Assembly (NCBI GenBank): GCA_944393505.1
Contig: CALYAK010000001.1
Location: 58,775-122,774, forward strand
Direction: 5' to 3'
DNA: 64,000 nt
Origin: an uncultured Clostridia bacterium
GTDB lineage: Bacteria > Bacillota > Clostridia > TANB77 > CAG-508
The first letter of the stretch is position 1; the number at the start of each line of letters is the position of its first letter. This document shows positions 4,582 through 48,398 of the stretch, piece after piece. Under the pieces are notes generated by a model. That model was given only the letters and a program-made list of their open reading frames with translations. It was not told where the DNA came from and searched no databases. Both the position numbers and the translations under genes were made by a program.

Positions 4582-4785
4582 AAGGTCTTCCTCCTTTTTA
4601 TTTTTTATAGTAAATATTATGTGTATTTTTCTTGTTTTTAAAATAGAAACTTTTAGTTTTTTAGGAATAGTTTTTCAAATCTTTCTTTTTTGGATTTTTT
4701 CGACTATTTTATTTATATTTTTTTATTTTCTTTTTTTATTTTACAAAAAATCGATAAAAATCTATTTCTTCGCATTTCCGTAAAG

Positions 4786-4995
4786 TTTTCCACATAGTTA
4801 TCCACAGGGTCTTTTCTTTTTTATTCGATTTTTCTATTATTTTTTTCTTATTTTTTCTAATTTTTTATTTTATTTTTTTAAAATTAATTTTATCAAAATC
4901 TACTCTTTCTAGGTTTCCCTATTTTTTTGTAAAAATGCATTTTTCTTTTTTTCATTTTCGAATTTCTTTCCACAGTTTTCTTAAAGTTTTCCACA
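4786..4995 (+). promoter_or_regulatory. Cluster of DnaA-box-like 9-mers (TTTTCCACA 4786-4794, perfect TTATCCACA 4798-4806, CTTTCCACA 4967-4975, TTTTCCACA 4987-4995) in the T-rich region upstream of the LPXTG/sortase operon
   Basis: Same-orientation 9-mers matching the box variants used at this genome's own oriC (TGTGGAAAA / TGTGGATAA). The motif AAAGTTTTCCACAG recurs three times. Confidence 0.4.
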
Positions 4996-5071
4996 GTTTC
5001 TTCTTACGGGCACCTATTTTTGACAATTTTTTGTATTTTTTTCATATTTTTGTCATATTTTTGTCTTATTT

Positions 5072-13322: not shown

Positions 13323-13334
13323 AAAGGAATTTTT

Positions 13335-13660
13335 ATGAAATTTATTTTTCCTCAAAATTATCAATTCCATGGAAAAATATTTGGTTTTCTAGATTACGCA
13401 TCTGCCATACTTTGTCGGTATAATAGGAATTATTTTTTATTTTTTTATCCAATTTTTTAATTTTACATTTTCTTTTAAATTTGCAATTTTCATTATTTTA
13501 TTTCTTCCTATTTTACTATTTTCAATTGTTGGTTTTAATAATGAAAGTTTGGCATATGTGGTATCCTATATTTTTCGTTTTTTTGTTTCTACTAAAATAT
13601 ATTGTTTTAAAAAGTCGAATGATTAATTTGTTTCTGTTTTCTTGTAAAAGGAAGAATTAA
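13335..13660 (+). pseudogene. Frameshifted small two-TM membrane protein, PrgI/TcpE (VirB3-like) candidate
   Basis: ATG at 13335 gives MKFIFPQNYQFHGKIFGFLDYASAILCRYNRN, then stops at 13458. The +2 frame continues with two hydrophobic helices to TAA at 13658. The frame switch falls in the T6/T7 runs at 13433-13446. Confidence 0.35.
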
Positions 13661-13709
13661 ATGGTATAATTTTTCATAGCATATTCTTTATTTTGAAAGG
13701 AGATCTCCT

Positions 13710-43200: not shown

Positions 43201-44546
43201 CAACCAGAAGAGCATGCTTCGTTTAACATGATATTATCAATGGAACCATTTTTCATGCGGATATATTTCATATCCTGTCCACCAATATCTACGATACTTG
43301 TTACCTCTGGTAAAAATTCTTTTGCTGCCGTATAGTGAGCAATTGTCTCAATTTCATTTAGATCTACATTTAAAGCTGTTTGAATTAGTTTTTCTCCATA
43401 TCCTGTAACCCCGCTATAACGAATAATTACACCATCTGGAAGATCGGAATAGAAAGTTTTAAGCATTTTAATAACGCTTTGTAATGGATTTCCCTCATTA
43501 CTTCCATAAAGAGAGTAAAGTAATTCATTATCTTCTCCAATTGCTACTAACTTAGTTGTAGTTGAACCGGCGTCAATTCCAACGTAACAATTTCCTTTAT
43601 AGGTTTTCAAATCTCCTTTTTTTACTTTATCCTTCTCGTGACGTTCTTTAAACTCTTCATATTCTGCGTCAATTGAAAAAAGTGGATTTAAAGGATTGGA
43701 TGTATCATCTCGATAATTTTTTAATAGTTCTAATTTTGCTTTTAATTTTTCAACAGAAATAGGGTTGGATTCGATTGAGTTTAAAGCTGCACCTTTTGCT
43801 ACTAATAAATGAGCTTCTTCTGGAACAATAATTTGATCACCTTTTAAAGATAAAGTTTCAATAAAACGTTCGCGTAATTCAGATAGATAATTTAAAGGTC
43901 CTCCTAAAAAGGCAACATTTCCTCGAATTGGTCTACCACAAGCTAATCCACTAATTGTTTGATTAACAACAGCTTGAAAAATAGAAGCTGCAATATCTTC
44001 TTTGGCTGCTCCTTCGTTTAGCAAAGGTTGAATATCTGTTTTGGCAAAAACACCGCAACGAGAAGCAATTGGATAAATCATCTGATGTTTTTTGGCTAAT
44101 TCGTTTAAACCAATAGCATCTGTGTGTAATAGAGATGCCATTTGGTCAATAAAAGCACCTGTTCCGCCGGCACAAGTACCATTCATACGTTGTTCAATAA
44201 ACTGATCAAAATAGATGATTTTGGCATCTTCACCGCCAAGTTCGATAACGACGTCTGTTTGCGGAATATATTTTTCAACAGCTCTTTTACAAGAAACAAC
44301 TTCTTGAATAAAAGAAAATCCTAAAAATTTAGCCGTTGACATTGCTCCAGAACCGGTTAAGGCAATTGTATAATCAAAATCTGGATATTGAATGGTTAAA
44401 TTTTCAAGAACTTTATAAACCGTATTTTTGGTATCGGAAAAATGTCTTTGATAATCTTGATAAATGGTATTTAAGTTGCTATCCATTACAATGATTTTTA
44501 CGGTTGTAGAACCAACGTCTAGTCCTACATGTAAAACTTGATTCAT
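40221..44546 (-). CDS. Fused CoA-substrate-specific enzyme activase (two BadF/BadG/BcrA/BcrD-type ATPase modules) plus 2-hydroxyacyl-CoA dehydratase-like domains
   Basis: 1441 aa. Two actin-fold ATPase units (LHVGLDVGSTTVKIIV; CYVGIDAGSTTTKLVA). Cys-rich [4Fe-4S] cluster region (CNKCENHC). HgdB/HgdD-like C-terminal half. Confidence 0.75.
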   Translation of the reverse strand: MNQVLHVGLDVGSTTVKIIVMDSNLNTIYQDYQRHFSDTKNTVYKVLENLTIQYPDFDYTIALTGSGAMSTAKFLGFSFIQEVVSCKRAVEKYIPQTDVVIELGGEDAKIIYFDQFIEQRMNGTCAGGTGAFIDQMASLLHTDAIGLNELAKKHQMIYPIASRCGVFAKTDIQPLLNEGAAKEDIAASIFQAVVNQTISGLACGRPIRGNVAFLGGPLNYLSELRERFIETLSLKGDQIIVPEEAHLLVAKGAALNSIESNPISVEKLKAKLELLKNYRDDTSNPLNPLFSIDAEYEEFKERHEKDKVKKGDLKTYKGNCYVGIDAGSTTTKLVAIGEDNELLYSLYGSNEGNPLQSVIKMLKTFYSDLPDGVIIRYSGVTGYGEKLIQTALNVDLNEIETIAHYTAAKEFLPEVTSIVDIGGQDMKYIRMKNGSIDNIMLNEACSSGCGSFIETFAKSLNLTLPEFVQAAIESRQPVDLGSRCTVFMNSKIKQAQKEGYSVGDISAGLSYSVIKNAIQKVMKVRDVSTLGDHIVVQGGTFYNDAVLRAFELIVGKKVIRPDIAGLMGAYGVALLAKEQYQANLDMTYTSTLTKSEDLDHLEITTSHVRCNKCENHCLLTINRFSNRQTHISGNRCEKGAGIVTGKSELPNLIKYKYERVFGYKPLLAEHAPRGTIGIPRVLNMYEDYPFWFTFLTNLGFRVVISEKSTRSTYEKGIESMPSESVCFPAKLSHGHIISLLNQGIKRIFYPCIPYSRKEYKSADNHYNCPIVISYSEVLKNNIEELKDPSVQFLNPFLPFEKKALVETMLELPEFKQFHFSKKELEMAATLAEKEYQQCKKNIHDEGQKALEYIEKHHTKGIVLAGRPYHVDPEVNHGIDTLITSLGLCVLTEDSISDKAEAKRPLRVVDQWVYHARLYAAAEFVGHHPNLELVQLNSFGCGVDAVTTDQVEEILSSYGKMYTLIKIDEINNLGAVRIRIRSLLASMNKRERERKELDSATGDYRVNKKIFTKEMRPDYTILIPQMAPIHFELLESAVRASGYKVELLRECTEHTVETGLKYVNNDACYPSILVTGQMIEALQSGKYDLNKTALIMSQTGGGCRATNYIGFIRKALKDAGYPNIPVISFNVVGMEKMPGFKITPKLVERLLKMVVYGDLLQKLLTKNRAYEVNKGETQALFDQWMEKCKKYLEKSTYQEFKDSIYEMVNDFEKIPLDTSIEKPKVGIVGEVLIKYHPFGNNFVADKLEEEGAEVILPDFMGFIKFIATHKVTFNTLIKTDKVKSKIFKTAINLIDILEKDAVAALKSSKKGYLLSCNIWELEKKVQDILSIGNQTGEGWFLTAEMIEYIEHGIPNIICVQPFACLPNHVVGKGVIKTIRSKYPEANISPIDYDPGASEANQTNRIKLLMTVAKDNLKLRQQEREKLYKENQTTSSSDVKIEK

Positions 44547-44721
44547 ATATATACCTCCTTAAACTAGGCTTTTAATATTCATACAATATAGTCAATTGTA
44601 CCTTGAAAATATTGATTTGTCAAATAAAAAGGCACTTTTCTAATGAGATAAAAAAGAAAAGGTTCTAAAAAATACTTGTCTAAAATATATTGAAACAAAA
44701 CAAGAAAAGGAGTGAAGAAAA

Positions 44722-45271
44722 ATGAGAAAAAAACAGATATTATTAATTCGGTTTTTTAATAATAGTCATAATCTTATTTGGAGTATTTTATTTTCTAAAA
44801 AATAAAACAGATAATAAAATAGTCGAATACATACCTCAAGAAGAGATTTCAGAGGAACAAGAAAGAATGACAATTGTTTCGCTATATTATTTAGACGAAA
44901 AAGCACAAACTTTGAAAAAAGAGGATCATTTAATTGATGTAAAATCATTGGTTAATAATCCATATGAAACAATATTTAATTTATTAAAAGAAAAACCGAA
45001 ATCAGAAGAATTGAAGAGTGCAATACCAGAAGGAACTGTTTTTCAAAAAGCAGAAATTAAAAATGGAATATTATATTTAGATCTATCAAAAGAGTTTATT
45101 CAAAATCATCCTGGAGGGAAAAACGAAGAATTACAAACGATTTATTCAATTGTTAATACAATGACAGAATTAATAGAGGTAGAGGGGGTAAAAATTCTAA
45201 TTGACGGAGAAGAAAATTTAAAATTTTCAGATGGACAAATCAATTTTACAGAGGCATTTTTTAAAATATAA
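44722..45271 (+). CDS. GerMN-domain (GerM-like) sporulation/germination lipoprotein candidate, N-terminal signal region disrupted by a frameshift at a T6 run (44752-44757)
   Basis: ATG 44722 gives MRKKQILLI... then a stop. The +1 frame continues FLIIVIILFGVFYFLKNK... into the 134-aa ORF listed from 44867. GerMN domain (YETIFNLL...GTVF...LYLDLSKEF). Confidence 0.5.
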
Positions 45272-46834
45272 TAATTTAAAAAATAAAATATTAAATTAAA
45301 TATTAAAAATAAAACATTAAAATTAAATAAATAACAAAAAATTGGAATATAGAAAATTAAAATAAAAAATAATGAAAAAATAAAAAAGAAATAATGAAAA
45401 ATAAAACAAACTGTATTAAAATAAAAAATAAATTAGAATTAAAAATAAAAAAATATTTGATTAAAAATAAAAAATCAATAATAATCCATTTAAAAAAGGA
45501 AAAAGATAGGATCAAAAAAAGTAACAGAATTAGAAGAAACAGGGTTACATAAGACCAAAAAAATAAAAGAAAAGTCAAATAGAAAAAAGAGAGTAAAAGG
45601 ATAAAGAAAGATAGCCTCAAAACAAAAAAACAAAGGAAAAAGTTGGAAAAAAGAAAAGATAAAAAAATAGGGATAAAAATAGGGATTTCTAAGGTTGAGG
45701 GACTTAATAATCAAAAGAAAAAGAGAGAAGAAAGAGAAAGACTGGTTAGCCAAAAAGTATCAAAAGAAAAGACAGTTTGACAAAAAAACAAGAGAAAAAC
45801 AAACTAAAGAATAGCAACAAGAGAAAACAGAAAAAGCTTAGGCTACTTATCGGAAAAATATGGAAAGATAAAAAAGAGAGAAAAATTAAAACAAAAAGAA
45901 ATAAAATAAATTAAAAAAATAAAATAATCTCTTTGATAAAAAATAAAAGTCCAATAAAATAAAAATAATAAATAATAAAACGGAATAAAATTTTAAAAAA
46001 TAAAAAATAGAAAAAAGAAATGATTCAAAAAAGAAATTAATTAAAATAAATGAGCAAAAATTTAAATAAAAAAGAAATAAAAAAATAATTATTAAAAAAT
46101 AAATAATAAAAAATGGATAGAAAAATAGATAGAAAAATAAAAACTAATTAATCGAAAAAAGATAAGTTATAAAGATTTACATAAAAAACAAAGAATAGAA
46201 AGAAAAATTATTAAGGTGTAATTCAACTTTTTTATCATAAAAAGGAAAGATTTAAGAAGGAAGAAAAAAGAGCTTTCTTCTTTTTCTTTATAGAGAGAAA
46301 GAAAAAGAAGAAAAGATCAATTTTAAAGAAAAAGGTAATCGAGAAAAAGTAAAAAATTGCTAGGGAAAACTGGGGAGGAGAACGAATTAAAAATGGATTA
46401 TGAAAAGAGAAAGAGGTAAGTCTTAGAAAAAGAAAAGTTTAAAAAAATGGACTAGAACATCAAAAAGACAACCAAAAACAGAACAAGAAAAGATCCAAAA
46501 ATTACCAATAGAAAAAGAAAGAAAAATAAGAAAACATAGTATACATAAAAACAAAAAAGTAAAAGAGAAAATCTTTTACTTTTTTATTATTTTATAAATT
46601 TTATGTGCTTTTAAAAAACAGGAAAAGCGATTTAAAAAACATTCTACTTCAAATAAAGAATTTAATAATTGATTTTTTTTATTTCCAATATTATTGGAGG
46701 AAATTATTTCGAAATTTTTTGGTCGATTACAATTCATAAAATCACCTACTTATTGTAAGAATTGAAAAGAGAGGAAAAATACGATATAATATAATATATG
46801 TAAAATAAAGAGAAAAGTTAAAAAGGATCTAAAT
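45272..46834 (+). repeat. About 1.56-kb gene-free, extremely A-rich polypurine (A/G on the plus strand) low-complexity tract
   Basis: No ORF of 60 aa or more on the plus strand. Minus-strand ORFs are Phe/Leu homopolymer artefacts. AAAATAAA-type motifs dominate and the strand purine bias is strong. Confidence 0.8.
46763..46791 (+). promoter_or_regulatory. Sigma-A-type promoter TTGAAA-17-TATAAT upstream of the methyltransferase-rsmI operon
   Basis: TTGAAA 46763-46768, TATAAT 46786-46791. Confidence 0.4.
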
Positions 46835-47575
46835 ATGGAAATAAAAGAGGAAGAAAGAATTGATGATTTACAAATAGGAAATTTAAAATTAATTCAAAAC
46901 AAAGAATGGTTTTGTTTTGGCATAGATAGTATTTTATTATCCAATTTTGCAAAGGAAATCAAAAAAGACGAAAGAATCATCGATTTAGGATGTGGAAATG
47001 GGATATTAGAATTATTATTTGCAAAGAAGAGTAAGGCAAGAGAAATAATTGGAATAGAAGTACAAGAAGATGTTTATCAATTAGCAAAAAGAAATGTAGA
47101 AATGAATCATTTGCAAAAAAAGATTAAGATGATTCATGCAAATGTAAAAAATTTAAATGATACTTTTCCATCAGATTCTTTTGATGCAGTTATTTCTAAT
47201 CCACCATATATGAAAAAAGATACAGGAAAAATGAACGAAAAGCCACAGAAATTAATAGCAAGACACGAAATTGAAGCAAATTTAGATGATTTTATAAAAA
47301 TTAGTTTCTATTTATTAAAAGATAAAAGACCGTTATACATGATTTATCGTACAGAAAGACTTACGGATATGATGGAAATTTTACGAAAATATAAAATAGA
47401 ACCAAAAGAAATTCAATTTATTCATGCAAAAATGGGAAATCCACCAGAATTGTTTTTAATAAAAGCAGTAAAAAATGGAAAACCATATTTAAAAGTAAAA
47501 AGACCTTTAATTATTTACCAAGAAAATGGTGATTACACAGAAGAAATTTTAAAAATTTATGGAAAGGTAAAATAA
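46835..47575 (+). CDS. SAM-dependent methyltransferase, YfiC/TrmN6-like (tRNA m6A37) family
   Basis: DLGCGNG SAM motif and NPPY catalytic motif. Confidence 0.6.
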   Translation: MEIKEEERIDDLQIGNLKLIQNKEWFCFGIDSILLSNFAKEIKKDERIIDLGCGNGILELLFAKKSKAREIIGIEVQEDVYQLAKRNVEMNHLQKKIKMIHANVKNLNDTFPSDSFDAVISNPPYMKKDTGKMNEKPQKLIARHEIEANLDDFIKISFYLLKDKRPLYMIYRTERLTDMMEILRKYKIEPKEIQFIHAKMGNPPELFLIKAVKNGKPYLKVKRPLIIYQENGDYTEEILKIYGKVK

Positions 47576-47576
47576 A

Positions 47577-48398
47577 ATGAACGGAAAAATCTATTTAGTA
47601 GCAACCCCAATTGGAAATTTGGAGGATATGACATTACGAGCAATAAAAACTCTTAAAGAAGTGGATGTAATTGCAGCAGAAGATACTAGACACACATTAA
47701 AATTATTAAACCATTTTGAAATAAAAAAGCCTTTAATTAGTTATCATAGACATAATGAAGAAACAAAATCAGATACCATATTAGAAATAGTAAAACAGGG
47801 AAAAAATGTAGCCATTGTAAGTGATGCAGGAACTCCAGGTATTTCCGATCCTGGAGAAGAAATTGTAAAAGCAGCCATTGATAATAAAATTGAAATTATT
47901 CCAATACCAGGAGCTTGTGCTTTTATTAATGCATTAATTATTTCTGGATTAGATACAAAGGAATTTGCTTTTTTTGGTTTTTTATCAATTTATCGAAAAA
48001 TAAAGGAAAAACAATTAGAAAAAATTAAAAAAGAAACAAAAACTACCATTTTATATGAAGCTCCTCATAAATTACAAAAAACACTAAAAGACCTTCAAGA
48101 AGTTCTTGGAGATGCTCCGATTGTTGTAGTAAAAGAATTGACGAAAATTCATGAAAAAACTTATCGAGGAAAAATATCGGAAGTTATGAAAGAAATTGGA
48201 GAAGAACCAAAAGGAGAATTTGTTTTATTAATTCCTCAGCAGAAACATGAGGAAGAATTAAAGGAATGGGAAACTTTATCAATAGAAGAACATTATCAAT
48301 ATTATCAAAAAAAGGGACTAGAAAAAAAAGCAATTATTAAACAAATTGCGAAGGACCGAAAGCTAAGTCGAAATGAAGTATATCAACACTTTCTTTAA
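47577..48398 (+). CDS. rsmI: 16S rRNA (cytidine1402-2'-O)-methyltransferase RsmI
   Basis: Tetrapyrrole-methylase fold. LVATPIGNLEDMTLRA N-terminus. DAGTPGISDPG. Confidence 0.85.
   Translation: MNGKIYLVATPIGNLEDMTLRAIKTLKEVDVIAAEDTRHTLKLLNHFEIKKPLISYHRHNEETKSDTILEIVKQGKNVAIVSDAGTPGISDPGEEIVKAAIDNKIEIIPIPGACAFINALIISGLDTKEFAFFGFLSIYRKIKEKQLEKIKKETKTTILYEAPHKLQKTLKDLQEVLGDAPIVVVKELTKIHEKTYRGKISEVMKEIGEEPKGEFVLLIPQQKHEEELKEWETLSIEEHYQYYQKKGLEKKAIIKQIAKDRKLSRNEVYQHFL

Follow-up and report, generated by a model that had tools for sequence, protein, structure and literature searches.

The tract and its neighbours

The DNA analysed here (the window) is a 64-kb stretch of a chromosome from an uncultured gut Clostridia bacterium. 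Positions 45272–46834 form a long stretch without credible ORFs, the plus strand of which is strongly A-rich (A.583, T.223, G.131, C.063), as the earlier note had recognised. That note described 1.56 kb of gene-free DNA without plausible ORFs on either strand. The non-coding tract is real, but its truly gene-free part is only the 1304 bp at 45272–46575, bounded by the 3′-ends of two convergent genes; beyond it, at 46576–46737, lies a minus-strand ORF with a Shine-Dalgarno sequence and a conserved C-terminus. Within 45272–46575 the longest plus-strand ORF is 52 aa, the longest minus-strand ORFs are 87 aa and represent F/L-rich translations of the T-rich complement, and a tRNA/tmRNA scan found no such gene in the tract. 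No other non-coding stretch in the window is as long; the next two measure 1002 bp, with three tRNA genes included, and 535 bp, at oriC. With a chromosomal coding density of ~84% the tract is unusually long, and the earlier remark that its length is striking for a compact origin-proximal region holds. The origin lies at ~28.5–30.3 kb in the window, as indicated by a dnaA-sized ORF (28820–30184, minus strand), DnaA-box clusters and the GC-skew minimum, and is ~16 kb away from the tract.

The left neighbour is a GerM-like (Germane domain) gene at 44722–45271 on the plus strand (Pfam PF10646, E = 5.8e-24). Its intact ORF spans 44867–45271 and encodes 134 aa, compared with 176–190 aa in relatives. 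One extra T in the T6 run at 44752–44757 puts the N-terminal membrane-anchor segment, with its ATG at 44722, out of frame; the region is identical across the seven other same-species assemblies covering it. The stop codon is not followed by a terminator hairpin (fold of 45262–45330, z = -0.2).

The last 270 bp (46560–46834) are of ordinary composition (A.44, T.37) and contain a small minus-strand gene, a terminator-like hairpin and the promoter of the methyltransferase gene. The small gene (46576–46737) encodes 53 aa and is preceded by the Shine-Dalgarno sequence AGGTGA at 46742–46747, 4 nt before the ATG. Its product belongs to no Pfam family and is 51–79 aa long in relatives, with a C-terminal motif (SL-x-EVE-x-FL...K-x-YK-I-x-K) that is kept in every relative examined. 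At 46553–46585, an AU-rich 14-bp hairpin followed by T-runs on each strand is a likely bidirectional intrinsic terminator (fold z = -4.5 on the plus and -5.9 on the minus strand; 0 shuffles folded as well). This hairpin is also found in the orthologous tracts of species L014 and L017 and is absent from that of L011. As predicted from its fold, it would likely end both the small minus-strand gene and any plus-strand read-through across the tract. A sigma-70-type promoter-like site (TTGAAA, 17 nt, TATAAT) at 46762–46790 on the plus strand, with a -10 region conserved between the window and L011, is positioned for a methyltransferase-rsmI operon. The first gene of this operon, at 46835–47575 on the plus strand, encodes a class I SAM-dependent methyltransferase according to Pfam families and homologue name; the sole homologue with a source name is a tRNA1(Val) (adenine37-N6)-methyltransferase. 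The rsmI-like gene lies downstream of it at 47577–48398.

The tract apparently disturbs metagenome assembly, as several contigs end there and one looks chimeric within it. The contigs for P0006 and P0019 end exactly at the tract, and the gap for P0016 is a normal 371 bp. L005 was considered as a strain with a different upstream gene; most likely it is instead a chimeric low-coverage contig in which the A-rich sequence has been fused to an ABC-transporter fragment.

Base composition and strand asymmetry

The plus strand had been described as almost pure A/G with very few C/T. Purines make up 71% of it overall and 79–82% in only two sub-blocks, T accounts for 22%, and no pure-purine run exceeds 29 nt, a length that local shuffles also give (21.8 ± 4.3, maximum 46). 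The frequencies of GGA, AGGA, A-run and TAAA k-mers in the tract are as expected from local composition. Nor is the composition special. The leading-strand genes of the window have base fractions of A.557, T.268, G.105 and C.070 at their four-fold degenerate sites, and the tract (A.58–.61, T.19–.22, G.13, C.06) matches these sites of co-oriented genes in the same genome. This simplest account of the composition, agreement with weakly constrained positions of the same strand, had been overlooked in the earlier note. The same agreement between tract and four-fold sites is found in L011, L014, L017, L015, L018 and L024. On the leading strand, A (.47) likewise exceeds T (.29) in the remaining intergenic DNA of the window, including a spacer between lagging-strand genes (13323–13709). 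Four-fold sites of lagging-strand genes, read on the sense strand, have A.36 and T.47; four-fold sites in the window thus track replication strand more than transcription direction. The smaller tracts of similar character that had been pointed out do exist, at 32836–33254 (A.58) and 4582–5071 (T.57 on the plus strand), and in all three tracts the leading strand is the A-rich one. A stretch in L015 (190–1208) suggests that such tracts may be a general property of these genomes.

In PolC-bearing Bacillota, leading and sense strands are known for their purine asymmetry (PMC4070872, PMC13323073). Sense-strand purine bias has recently been ascribed to escape from Rho termination under runaway transcription, and T- and C-rich RNA is reported as a Rho target (PMC13323073). 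The tract conforms to this asymmetry: its leading strand is 71% purine, with more A than T and more G than C. Its complement (T.58–.61, C.13) is rich in T and C, as are the RNAs reported to be targeted. Both studies describe genes and whole strands, whereas the present case is a 1.3-kb untranslated stretch. The G>C, low-T composition associated with Rho-evading sense strands is found here (C.06, G.13, T.19–.22 on the plus strand).

Divergence, block pattern and polymorphism

The order of the GerM-like gene, the small gene and the methyltransferase gene is kept in ~75 species, in which the distance between the GerM-like and methyltransferase genes is mostly ~240–400 bp. None of these syntenic species has a gene at the tract position. 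In two outgroups inspected in detail, the two genes converge with an 8-bp overlap (L092) or with 66 bp between them (L100). The spacer between the same two 3′-ends measures ~510–530 bp in L015, L018 and L024. A length of 1.3–1.6 kb is seen only in the window species, L011, L014 and L017; L088 and L024 have instead gained A-rich DNA on the opposite side of the small gene. The four long-spacer species differ by 30–39% in methyltransferase protein sequence. Tracts were compared by global alignment against block-shuffled nulls, as unmasked blastn gave hundreds of spurious low-complexity matches. The window tract aligned with those of L011, L014 and L017 at only z = 3.6–4.4, little above the block-shuffled controls, and the closest inter-species pair, L014–L017, at z = 19. 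Between species, the tract sequence is close to saturation. Metagenome contigs were searched for closer methyltransferase relatives, and the best had 56% identity, so genomes of intermediate divergence were not among them.

The G content is uneven along the tract (chi-square p = 2e-6). A/T-rich blocks (G.03–.07) alternate with A/G-rich blocks (G.17–.25, T.10–.17), and this arrangement is collinear in all four species. In the window, A/T-rich block 1 (45272–45470; A ~.67, T ~.25, G ~.05) contains weak tandem arrays with periods of 7–46 and is followed by A/G-rich block 1 (45471–45880; A.60, G.19, T.13, C.08). A/T-rich block 2 (45881–46170) holds a 12-nt repeat array at 46101–46139. A/G-rich block 2 (46171–46552) contains a perfect 16-bp inverted repeat (46274–46289 / 46298–46313), around which the sequence at 46240–46330 folds no better than shuffles (z = -0.9). 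The T content of the A/G blocks is below that of both four-fold sites (.27) and coding DNA (.29), and their G content resembles that of coding DNA (.18).

All A/G blocks of the four species carry a short motif, TAGGGAT(A/T)TCAAT. TAGGG occurs 10 times against 2.0 expected, a count reached in 0 of 2000 shuffles. In A/G-rich block 1, TAGGGAT occurs twice (45668–45674 and 45680–45686) inside the short internal repeat that the earlier note had picked out, TAGGGATAAAAATAGGGAT, which is indeed a perfect 12-bp tandem duplication (45663–45686); A/G-rich block 2 carries the variant TAGGGAA at 46361–46367. When the eight motif-anchored units were aligned, conservation was limited to the motif itself, and sequence inspection did not place it within a conserved hairpin. 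The similarity of unit 1 to unit 2 was not significant in the window (z = 0.8), L011 or L014, and was significant only for the A/T blocks of L017. Consensus sequences of sigma-H, sigma-F/G and sigma-D promoters and of GerE and Spo0A sites gave no consistent fit to the motif.

Within the species, the tract has 12 SNP sites in 1304 bp (9.2/kb), compared with 18.8/kb at four-fold sites (Fisher p = 0.07, with 12 tract SNPs) and 1.2/kb at codon positions 1+2 (p = 6e-5). The tract density, about half of the four-fold level, leaves room for weak constraint, although the difference is not significant. Two strains lack the 12-nt unit at 46116–46127 of the array described above, a 1-bp A-run indel also occurs among strains, and Tandem Repeats Finder reports many weak overlapping tandem arrays in the tract. 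Both the unit-length polymorphism of tandem repeats and the composition and substitution level of weakly constrained sites, as expected of a spacer evolving by slippage, are thus observed. Such a spacer should also be homogeneous in composition and free of conserved islands, and here the tract departs from expectation, in its heterogeneous G content and its TAGGG motif.

Interpretation of the tract

One alternative is that the tract consists of one or two decayed genes or a mobile element, which entered the convergent junction before the four species diverged, such that the A/G blocks are former coding regions and the A/T blocks former intergenic DNA. The junction does take insertions elsewhere: L023 carries a transposase gene of the PD-(D/E)XK family (Pfam PF12784, E = 1.6e-46), and L030 and L077 have other inserted genes. 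The coding-like G content of the A/G blocks (.17–.25 against.18) also fits. However, period-3 z-scores are -1.1 to 1.9 in the four orthologous tracts and -1.1 to 0.5 in the four blocks, compared with 7.9–26 in the flanking genes, and tblastn of the proteins inserted in L023, L030 and L077 against six tracts gave nothing below E = 1. Distant blastn searches of phage and plasmid collections found no DNA match to the tract. Simple decay does not yield the low T content of the A/G blocks, and a pseudogene would have to keep its whole length in four lineages while their sequences diverged to saturation. Such an origin is improbable. A protein-coding gene or recent pseudogene is rejected on the lack of a plausible ORF, of codon periodicity and of a homologue at this position, and the eroded ancestral gene proposed earlier likewise finds no counterpart in the ~75 relatives or in the outgroups. 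It is highly improbable that the tract acts as DNA, whether as a binding array for DnaA or nucleoid proteins or as a curved or triplex-prone insulator of replication or transcription. Its distance of ~16 kb from oriC would suit such a role, and the conserved motif (TAGGGATATCAAT) could be a candidate protein-binding site. In Bacillus subtilis, DnaA-box clusters occur in origin-proximal intergenic regions. Similarly, the sister spacer at 4582–5071 contains three TTATCCACA-type DnaA boxes within one mismatch against 0.12 expected, and the orthologous tracts of L011 and L014 contain two each (P ~0.02–0.03 each). Unlike these, the window and L017 tracts contain 0 boxes within one mismatch, so that a DnaA-box cluster in the window tract is rejected, and most of the clade has no such tract. 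The bent DNA suggested earlier fared no better: spectral z-scores at periods of 10, 10.5 and 11 range from -1.1 to 2.3 across all tracts and blocks, and AAAAA and other A-runs are not enriched over local composition, which argues against intrinsically curved DNA with phased A-tracts. A triplex-forming (H-DNA) homopurine tract is discarded in view of the shuffle-like 29-nt maximum.

It is regarded as unlikely that the tract gives rise to one or two non-coding RNAs, purine-rich and unstructured, or forms a functional long 3′ UTR of the GerM-like mRNA. The A/G blocks and the UAGGGAU(A/U)UCAAU motif would then be the active parts, for example as a platform for an RNA-binding protein; an A/T-rich, promoter-like block would precede each A/G block, with the terminator at 46553–46585 closing the second. 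In favour of such RNAs, the block architecture and motif are kept in four species despite the near-saturated background, promoter-like sites begin the A/T blocks (45245–45272 with 11/12 matches and 45933–45960 with 10/12), a conserved terminator-like hairpin closes the tract, and SNPs are about half as dense as at four-fold sites. The C-poor, T-poor plus strand with G>C would also evade Rho, as proposed for Bacillota sense strands (PMC13323073). Against them, promoter-like matches in the tract (20) are not in excess of shuffles (15.9 ± 3.3), and the first of the two sites falls inside conserved coding sequence. A scan of the whole window at gathering thresholds gave no Rfam 15 match in the tract, and at E <= 10 the interval 45000–46900 gave hairpin-type chance matches only (<=26 bits against thresholds of 60–96), so a described structured RNA family is rejected and the structured long RNA envisaged earlier is not borne out. 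Large non-coding RNAs of Clostridia and other Bacillota include OLE, GOLLD, HEARO, ROOL and raiA. The tract shares with these its size class (hundreds of nt to >1 kb), intergenic position and Bacillota host, and differs in having no Rfam 15 match and no conserved hairpin besides the terminator; extensive pairing in its RNA would be unlikely because 71–80% purine leaves too few pyrimidines. As a candidate unstructured purine-rich RNA with a repeated G-rich motif, it recalls the CsrB/RsmZ-type sponge RNAs. It differs from these in that GGA, AGGA and ANGGA are not enriched (z = -1.7 to 1.6 in four species), for which reason a CsrB-like sponge is discarded, and in that each block has only about one copy of the conserved motif, outside any conserved hairpin. 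The insignificant similarity of the two units in the window and the lack of a tract in most of the clade also count against an RNA function. In sum, none of the four roles proposed in the earlier note has gained positive support.

The best explanation, with a probability of roughly 0.55, is that the tract is a lineage-specific, essentially unconstrained low-complexity spacer grown by slippage and probably read through from the GerM-like gene. Its A-rich make-up matches that of weakly constrained DNA on the same strand, and it is therefore most likely a fast-evolving spacer, not a special element. The tract is non-coding, its composition is like that of four-fold sites, it expanded in one lineage, it is poorly conserved between species, its SNPs are nearly as dense as at four-fold sites, and its repeat units are polymorphic in length. 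Spacer DNA would have accumulated between the 3′-ends of the GerM-like gene (plus strand) and the small conserved gene (minus strand), probably growing and being renewed as low-complexity sequence slipped during replication or was duplicated in small tandem units. The purine-skewed composition would be a by-product, not a signal, at the level reached by weakly constrained leading-strand positions in a very AT-rich Bacillota genome, in line with the known purine asymmetry linked to replication and transcription. The tract is probably transcribed passively, prolonging the GerM-like mRNA, whose stop codon lacks a terminator, up to the hairpin at 46553–46585, and its RNA, being C-poor and T-poor with G>C, would be a poor Rho substrate. 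The tract resembles "cryptically simple" slippage DNA in its weak tandem arrays, 12-bp duplication, gain and loss of units, composition-expected k-mers and length differences between species, and differs from it in being kept at 1.3–1.6 kb, with collinear blocks, in four diverged species.

Several observations speak against the spacer interpretation. Four diverged species keep 1.3–1.6 kb of sequence despite the deletion bias usually assumed for bacteria, the T-poor A/G blocks are not predicted by a single mutational equilibrium, the block alternation is collinear in four species, the TAGGG motif recurs in every A/G block, and the SNP level, half of that at four-fold sites though not significantly lower, would allow weak constraint. 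The block alternation and the TAGGGAT(A/T)TCAAT motif are two features that the spacer interpretation leaves unexplained, and it is mainly because of the heterogeneous composition and the conserved TAGGG motif that confidence in it is not higher. A more specific and quite unlikely possibility is that, in a single genus-level lineage of uncultured gut Clostridia, selection keeps the 1.3–1.6 kb tract for a transcript that is rich in purines, poor in structure and resistant to Rho. This transcript would be a very long 3′ UTR belonging to the GerM-like sporulation gene or else two independent RNAs, with the A/G blocks and UAGGGAU(A/U)UCAAU functional, for example in recruiting an RNA- or DNA-binding protein; if so, it would represent a composition-defined class of bacterial long non-coding RNA.

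The significance of the unconstrained spacer favoured here is mainly cautionary. Unconstrained leading-strand DNA in an AT-rich, strand-asymmetric member of the Bacillota can mimic a striking "A-rich polypurine tract", and the right control is the four-fold degenerate-site composition of co-oriented genes. The locus also provides a clean case of a bacterial intergenic spacer that grew from ~0–66 bp to ~1.3 kb and was retained through deep divergence, which bears on the amount of non-functional DNA tolerated by small gut-commensal genomes. Should the block pattern and TAGGGAT motif prove functional, an element so far unannotated, either a purine-rich RNA or a site of protein binding, would lie beside sporulation genes.

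Layout of the locus and its non-coding spacer

The window is a chromosome segment of about 30% GC. Its origin lies at about 28.5-30.3 kb, as indicated by a minus-strand ORF of dnaA size (28820-30184), DnaA-box clusters found by box scan (28555-28720 and 30249-30266), and the GC-skew minimum. Further along, a GerM-like ORF (44867-45271, plus strand; Pfam Germane) and its right-hand neighbour, a methyltransferase gene (46835-47575, plus strand), are separated by 1563 bp (A.583, T.223, G.131, C.063; 71% purine). The earlier note described this entire interval as gene-free and almost pure A/G. The latter is an overstatement, as T accounts for 22% of the bases and the longest pure-purine run, at 29 nt, is within the range of local shuffles. 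The former holds for 45272-46575; at the right end, a conserved 53-aa ORF (46576-46737, minus strand) had been missed. Gene callers find this ORF in every same-species contig and in relatives, and it has a Shine-Dalgarno sequence (AGGTGA) 4 nt 5′ of its ATG. In about 75 related species it is always located between the GerM-like and methyltransferase genes and encodes a protein of 51-79 aa. The C-terminal motif SL-x-EVE-x-FL-x-x-F...YKI-x-K is kept across the clade, many relatives carry an N-terminal CPPPKKK or CC segment, and the 53-aa protein matches no Pfam family.

The last 270 bp before the methyltransferase gene are of ordinary composition and contain, along with the small ORF, an AU-rich 14-bp hairpin with T-runs on both sides (46553-46585, both strands; fold z = -4.5 and -5.9 against shuffles) and a promoter-like site, TTGAAA-17-TATAAT, found by sequence scan (46762-46790, plus strand). 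The hairpin also occurs in L014 and L017, the corresponding loci of two other species. Given the small gene, hairpin and promoter at the right end, the truly gene-free part is 45272-46575 (1304 bp), hereafter the tract, which is flanked by the 3′-ends of two convergent genes. No hairpin was found after the GerM-like stop codon when folds were compared with shuffles.

The tract is non-coding, as had been proposed. Neither of its strands holds an ORF of plausible length, and three-base periodicity is absent from the tract, its blocks and three orthologs (z -1.1 to 1.9), compared with z 7.9-26 in the flanking genes. The Rfam search suggested in the earlier note returned no match at gathering thresholds or E <= 10, a tRNA and tmRNA scan found nothing in the tract, and phage and plasmid collections gave no match to it. 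A perfect 16-bp inverted repeat, TTTCTTCTTTTTCTTT / AAAGAAAAAGAAGAAA, with an 8-nt loop (46274-46313) is the sole pyrimidine run within the tract. It is terminator-like on the minus strand by scan, its fold energy is no better than that of shuffles (z = -0.9), and conservation in the ortholog L011 is not evident.

The GerM-like gene is itself frameshifted by an extra T in a T6 run (44752-44757, in region 44722-44870), which puts the Germane-domain ORF, starting at 44867, out of frame with the start codon and its membrane-anchor segment (MRKKQILLI...). In relatives, the gene is in a single frame of 176-190 aa. Seven other same-species assemblies align across the frameshift region, all with the same sequence as the window. 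The shift could mark true pseudogenisation, a protein that lacks the anchor, or expression corrected by slippage.

Composition of the tract and other spacers

The composition of the tract (A.58-.61, T.19-.22, G.13, C.06) is not special, contrary to what had been supposed: weakly constrained positions of this genome look the same. In the window, leading-strand genes have A.557, T.268, G.105 and C.070 at their four-fold degenerate sites, and the same agreement is seen in six relatives. On the sense strand of lagging-strand genes these sites have A.359, T.473, G.051 and C.118, so that the leading strand is again A- and G-rich. Throughout the remaining 4.9 kb of intergenic DNA in the window, A also exceeds T on the leading strand (A.47, T.29), including in a spacer between lagging-strand genes (13323-13709). 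AT skew falls from.52 in the tract to.35 at four-fold sites and.24 in other spacers. The tract stands at the far end of a general trend, and is the same kind of sequence as other weakly constrained DNA. Purine asymmetry of Bacillota strands is an established phenomenon (PMC4070872), and sense-strand purine asymmetry has recently been tied to Rho avoidance (PMC13323073). The emphasis of the latter, sense-strand model differs from what is found here: across all genes of the window, composition at synonymous sites depends very strongly on strand, and replication strand rather than transcription direction dominates it.

Counts of A-runs, TAAA, GGA and AGGA fit local composition, with mild enrichment of GAAA and AAAG only, and no 10-11 bp phasing was detected in the tract. 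Curved DNA, which the earlier note had offered as one role, is therefore not supported, and neither is a CsrB-like sponge.

Two smaller A/T-rich spacers are present in the window. Spacer 4582-5071 (sense on the minus strand; T-rich as read on the plus strand), about 25 kb from oriC, contains three DnaA boxes against 0.12 expected: TGTGGATAA at 4798-4806 and TGTGGAAAA at 4786-4794 and 4987-4995. This cluster is similar to those of DnaA boxes near the origin of Bacillus subtilis. TAGGGAA also occurs there at about 4916. Spacer 32836-33254 lies between ORFs 32095-32835 and 33255-34631 (putatively jag-like and mnmE-like, by position). It opens with a clear hairpin and T-run (about 32845-32915), followed by about 340 bp of A/T-rich DNA (G.04, C.04) up to the next start codon, with one near-DnaA box at 32965-32973. 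As for the long tracts, two boxes of type TGTGGAAAA or TGTGGATAA occur in each of the orthologs L011 (8633, 8873) and L014 (9393, 9414; P about 0.02-0.03 each), and none within one mismatch was found in the tract of the window or of L017.

Lineage-specific expansion at a 3′-3′ junction

An identical methyltransferase is found on 10 contigs from independent gut metagenomes, nine of which match the window at 99.5% identity or more over their covered part of 40221-48398. In the tenth, L005, the match begins only at 46426 and extends to the right. In its positions 1-421, this low-coverage contig joins an ABC-transporter fragment to window sequence within the tract, at a shared GAAAAAGAAAAGTTTAAAAAAATGGA-type stretch, and is thus probably chimeric. 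Contigs carrying the methyltransferases P0006 and P0019 end within 30-330 bp upstream of that gene (L097, L098 and L099, at contig starts), and the tract seems to disturb metagenome assembly.

In the nearest other species (L011, L014 and L017; methyltransferase identity 70, 64 and 61%), gene order is as in the window, and A-rich tracts of 1.4-1.6 kb extend from the GerM-like stop codon to the small gene. The comparison among relatives that the earlier note had called for was widened by a scan of species-representative genomes, which gave 80 loci from uncultured gut Clostridia (e.g., "Candidatus Merdicola" and Clostridium sp. CAG:343). The order GerM/small gene/methyltransferase holds in about 75 of these loci, with a total gap of mostly 240-400 bp in which A and T are about equal. 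Of two outgroups examined in detail, L092 has the convergent genes overlapping by 8 bp, and L100 has them separated by 66 bp. Since most syntenic relatives have a short spacer or none, the tract is a lineage-specific expansion, and the suggestion that it is an eroded ancestral gene fails. L015, L018 and L024 have A-rich spacers of intermediate length (about 510-530 bp), and A-rich DNA has built up also on the other side of the small gene in L088 and L024. L015 has a second gene-free, AT-rich kilobase (A>T; 190-1208), located upstream of a patatin-like gene and preceded by the apparent 3′-ends of tRNAs and by a hairpin plus T-run. Long A-rich spacers may therefore be a general trait of these genomes.

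Slippage, constraint and interpretation

When the tract is aligned globally with L011, L014 and L017, identity is 72-74%, compared with 71-72% in block-shuffled controls (z = 3.6-4.4); L014 and L017, a closer pair, align at z = 19 and show conserved islands. Among seven strains, 12 SNP sites fall in the tract (9.2/kb), compared with 18.8/kb at four-fold sites (Fisher p = 0.07) and 1.2/kb at codon positions 1+2 (p = 6e-5 against the tract). One 12-bp unit of the array 46101-46139 is missing from two strains, and a 1-bp A-run indel is present in two, one of which also lacks the unit. The internal repeat TAGGGATAAAAATAGGGAT reported earlier is indeed present, as a perfect 12-bp tandem duplication. 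These are slippage signatures in largely unconstrained DNA.

We therefore favour, at a probability of roughly 0.55, spacer DNA that would have grown by slippage at a permissive 3′-3′ junction, its composition being set by the strand-biased substitution regime of the genome. Other genes at the junction suggest a permissive insertion site: a PD-(D/E)XK-family transposase in L023 (4749-5648; PF12784, E = 1.6e-46), ORFs of 160 and 436 aa in L030 (1971-4057), and a 218-aa ORF in L077 (4927-5583). That the tract is itself a decayed insertion is improbable, however, as none of these inserted proteins matches it.

Several features do not fit a purely neutral spacer. More than 1.3 kb is retained in all four diverged species, with a collinear pattern in which A/T-rich blocks (45272-45470 and 45881-46170; G.03-.07) alternate with A/G-rich ones (45471-45880 and 46171-46552; G.17-.25, T.10-.17). 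Such unevenness is statistically significant (chi-square p = 2e-6), and T in the A/G blocks is below that of both coding DNA and four-fold sites. Every A/G block of each species carries the motif TAGGGAT(A/T)TCAAT or its variants TAGGGAA and TAGGGGA; TAGGG occurs 10 times against 2.0 expected, a count reached in 0/2000 shuffles. Elsewhere in roughly 1 Mb of sequence from the clade, the 10-mer TAGGGAT[AT][TGC]C is confined to the antisense strand of a 1441-aa BcrAD_BadFG/DUF2229 gene. The motif could not be matched to a known site, and it is not a conserved peptide, since the reading frame across it varies between units. A functional purine-rich RNA or long 3′ UTR is a minority reading, somewhat ahead of the decayed insertion; a DNA-level binding or structural element is the least probable of all. 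In the favoured reading as a spacer, transcription would run on from the GerM-like gene across the tract to the hairpin at 46553-46585, a probable bidirectional terminator. By the criteria of PMC13323073, the plus-strand RNA, being C-poor, T-poor and with G>C, would be a poor Rho target and its antisense a good one. As slippage-grown spacer DNA, the tract would be a further, so far undescribed case of known phenomena, of which a small part, the block pattern and the motif, is left unexplained.
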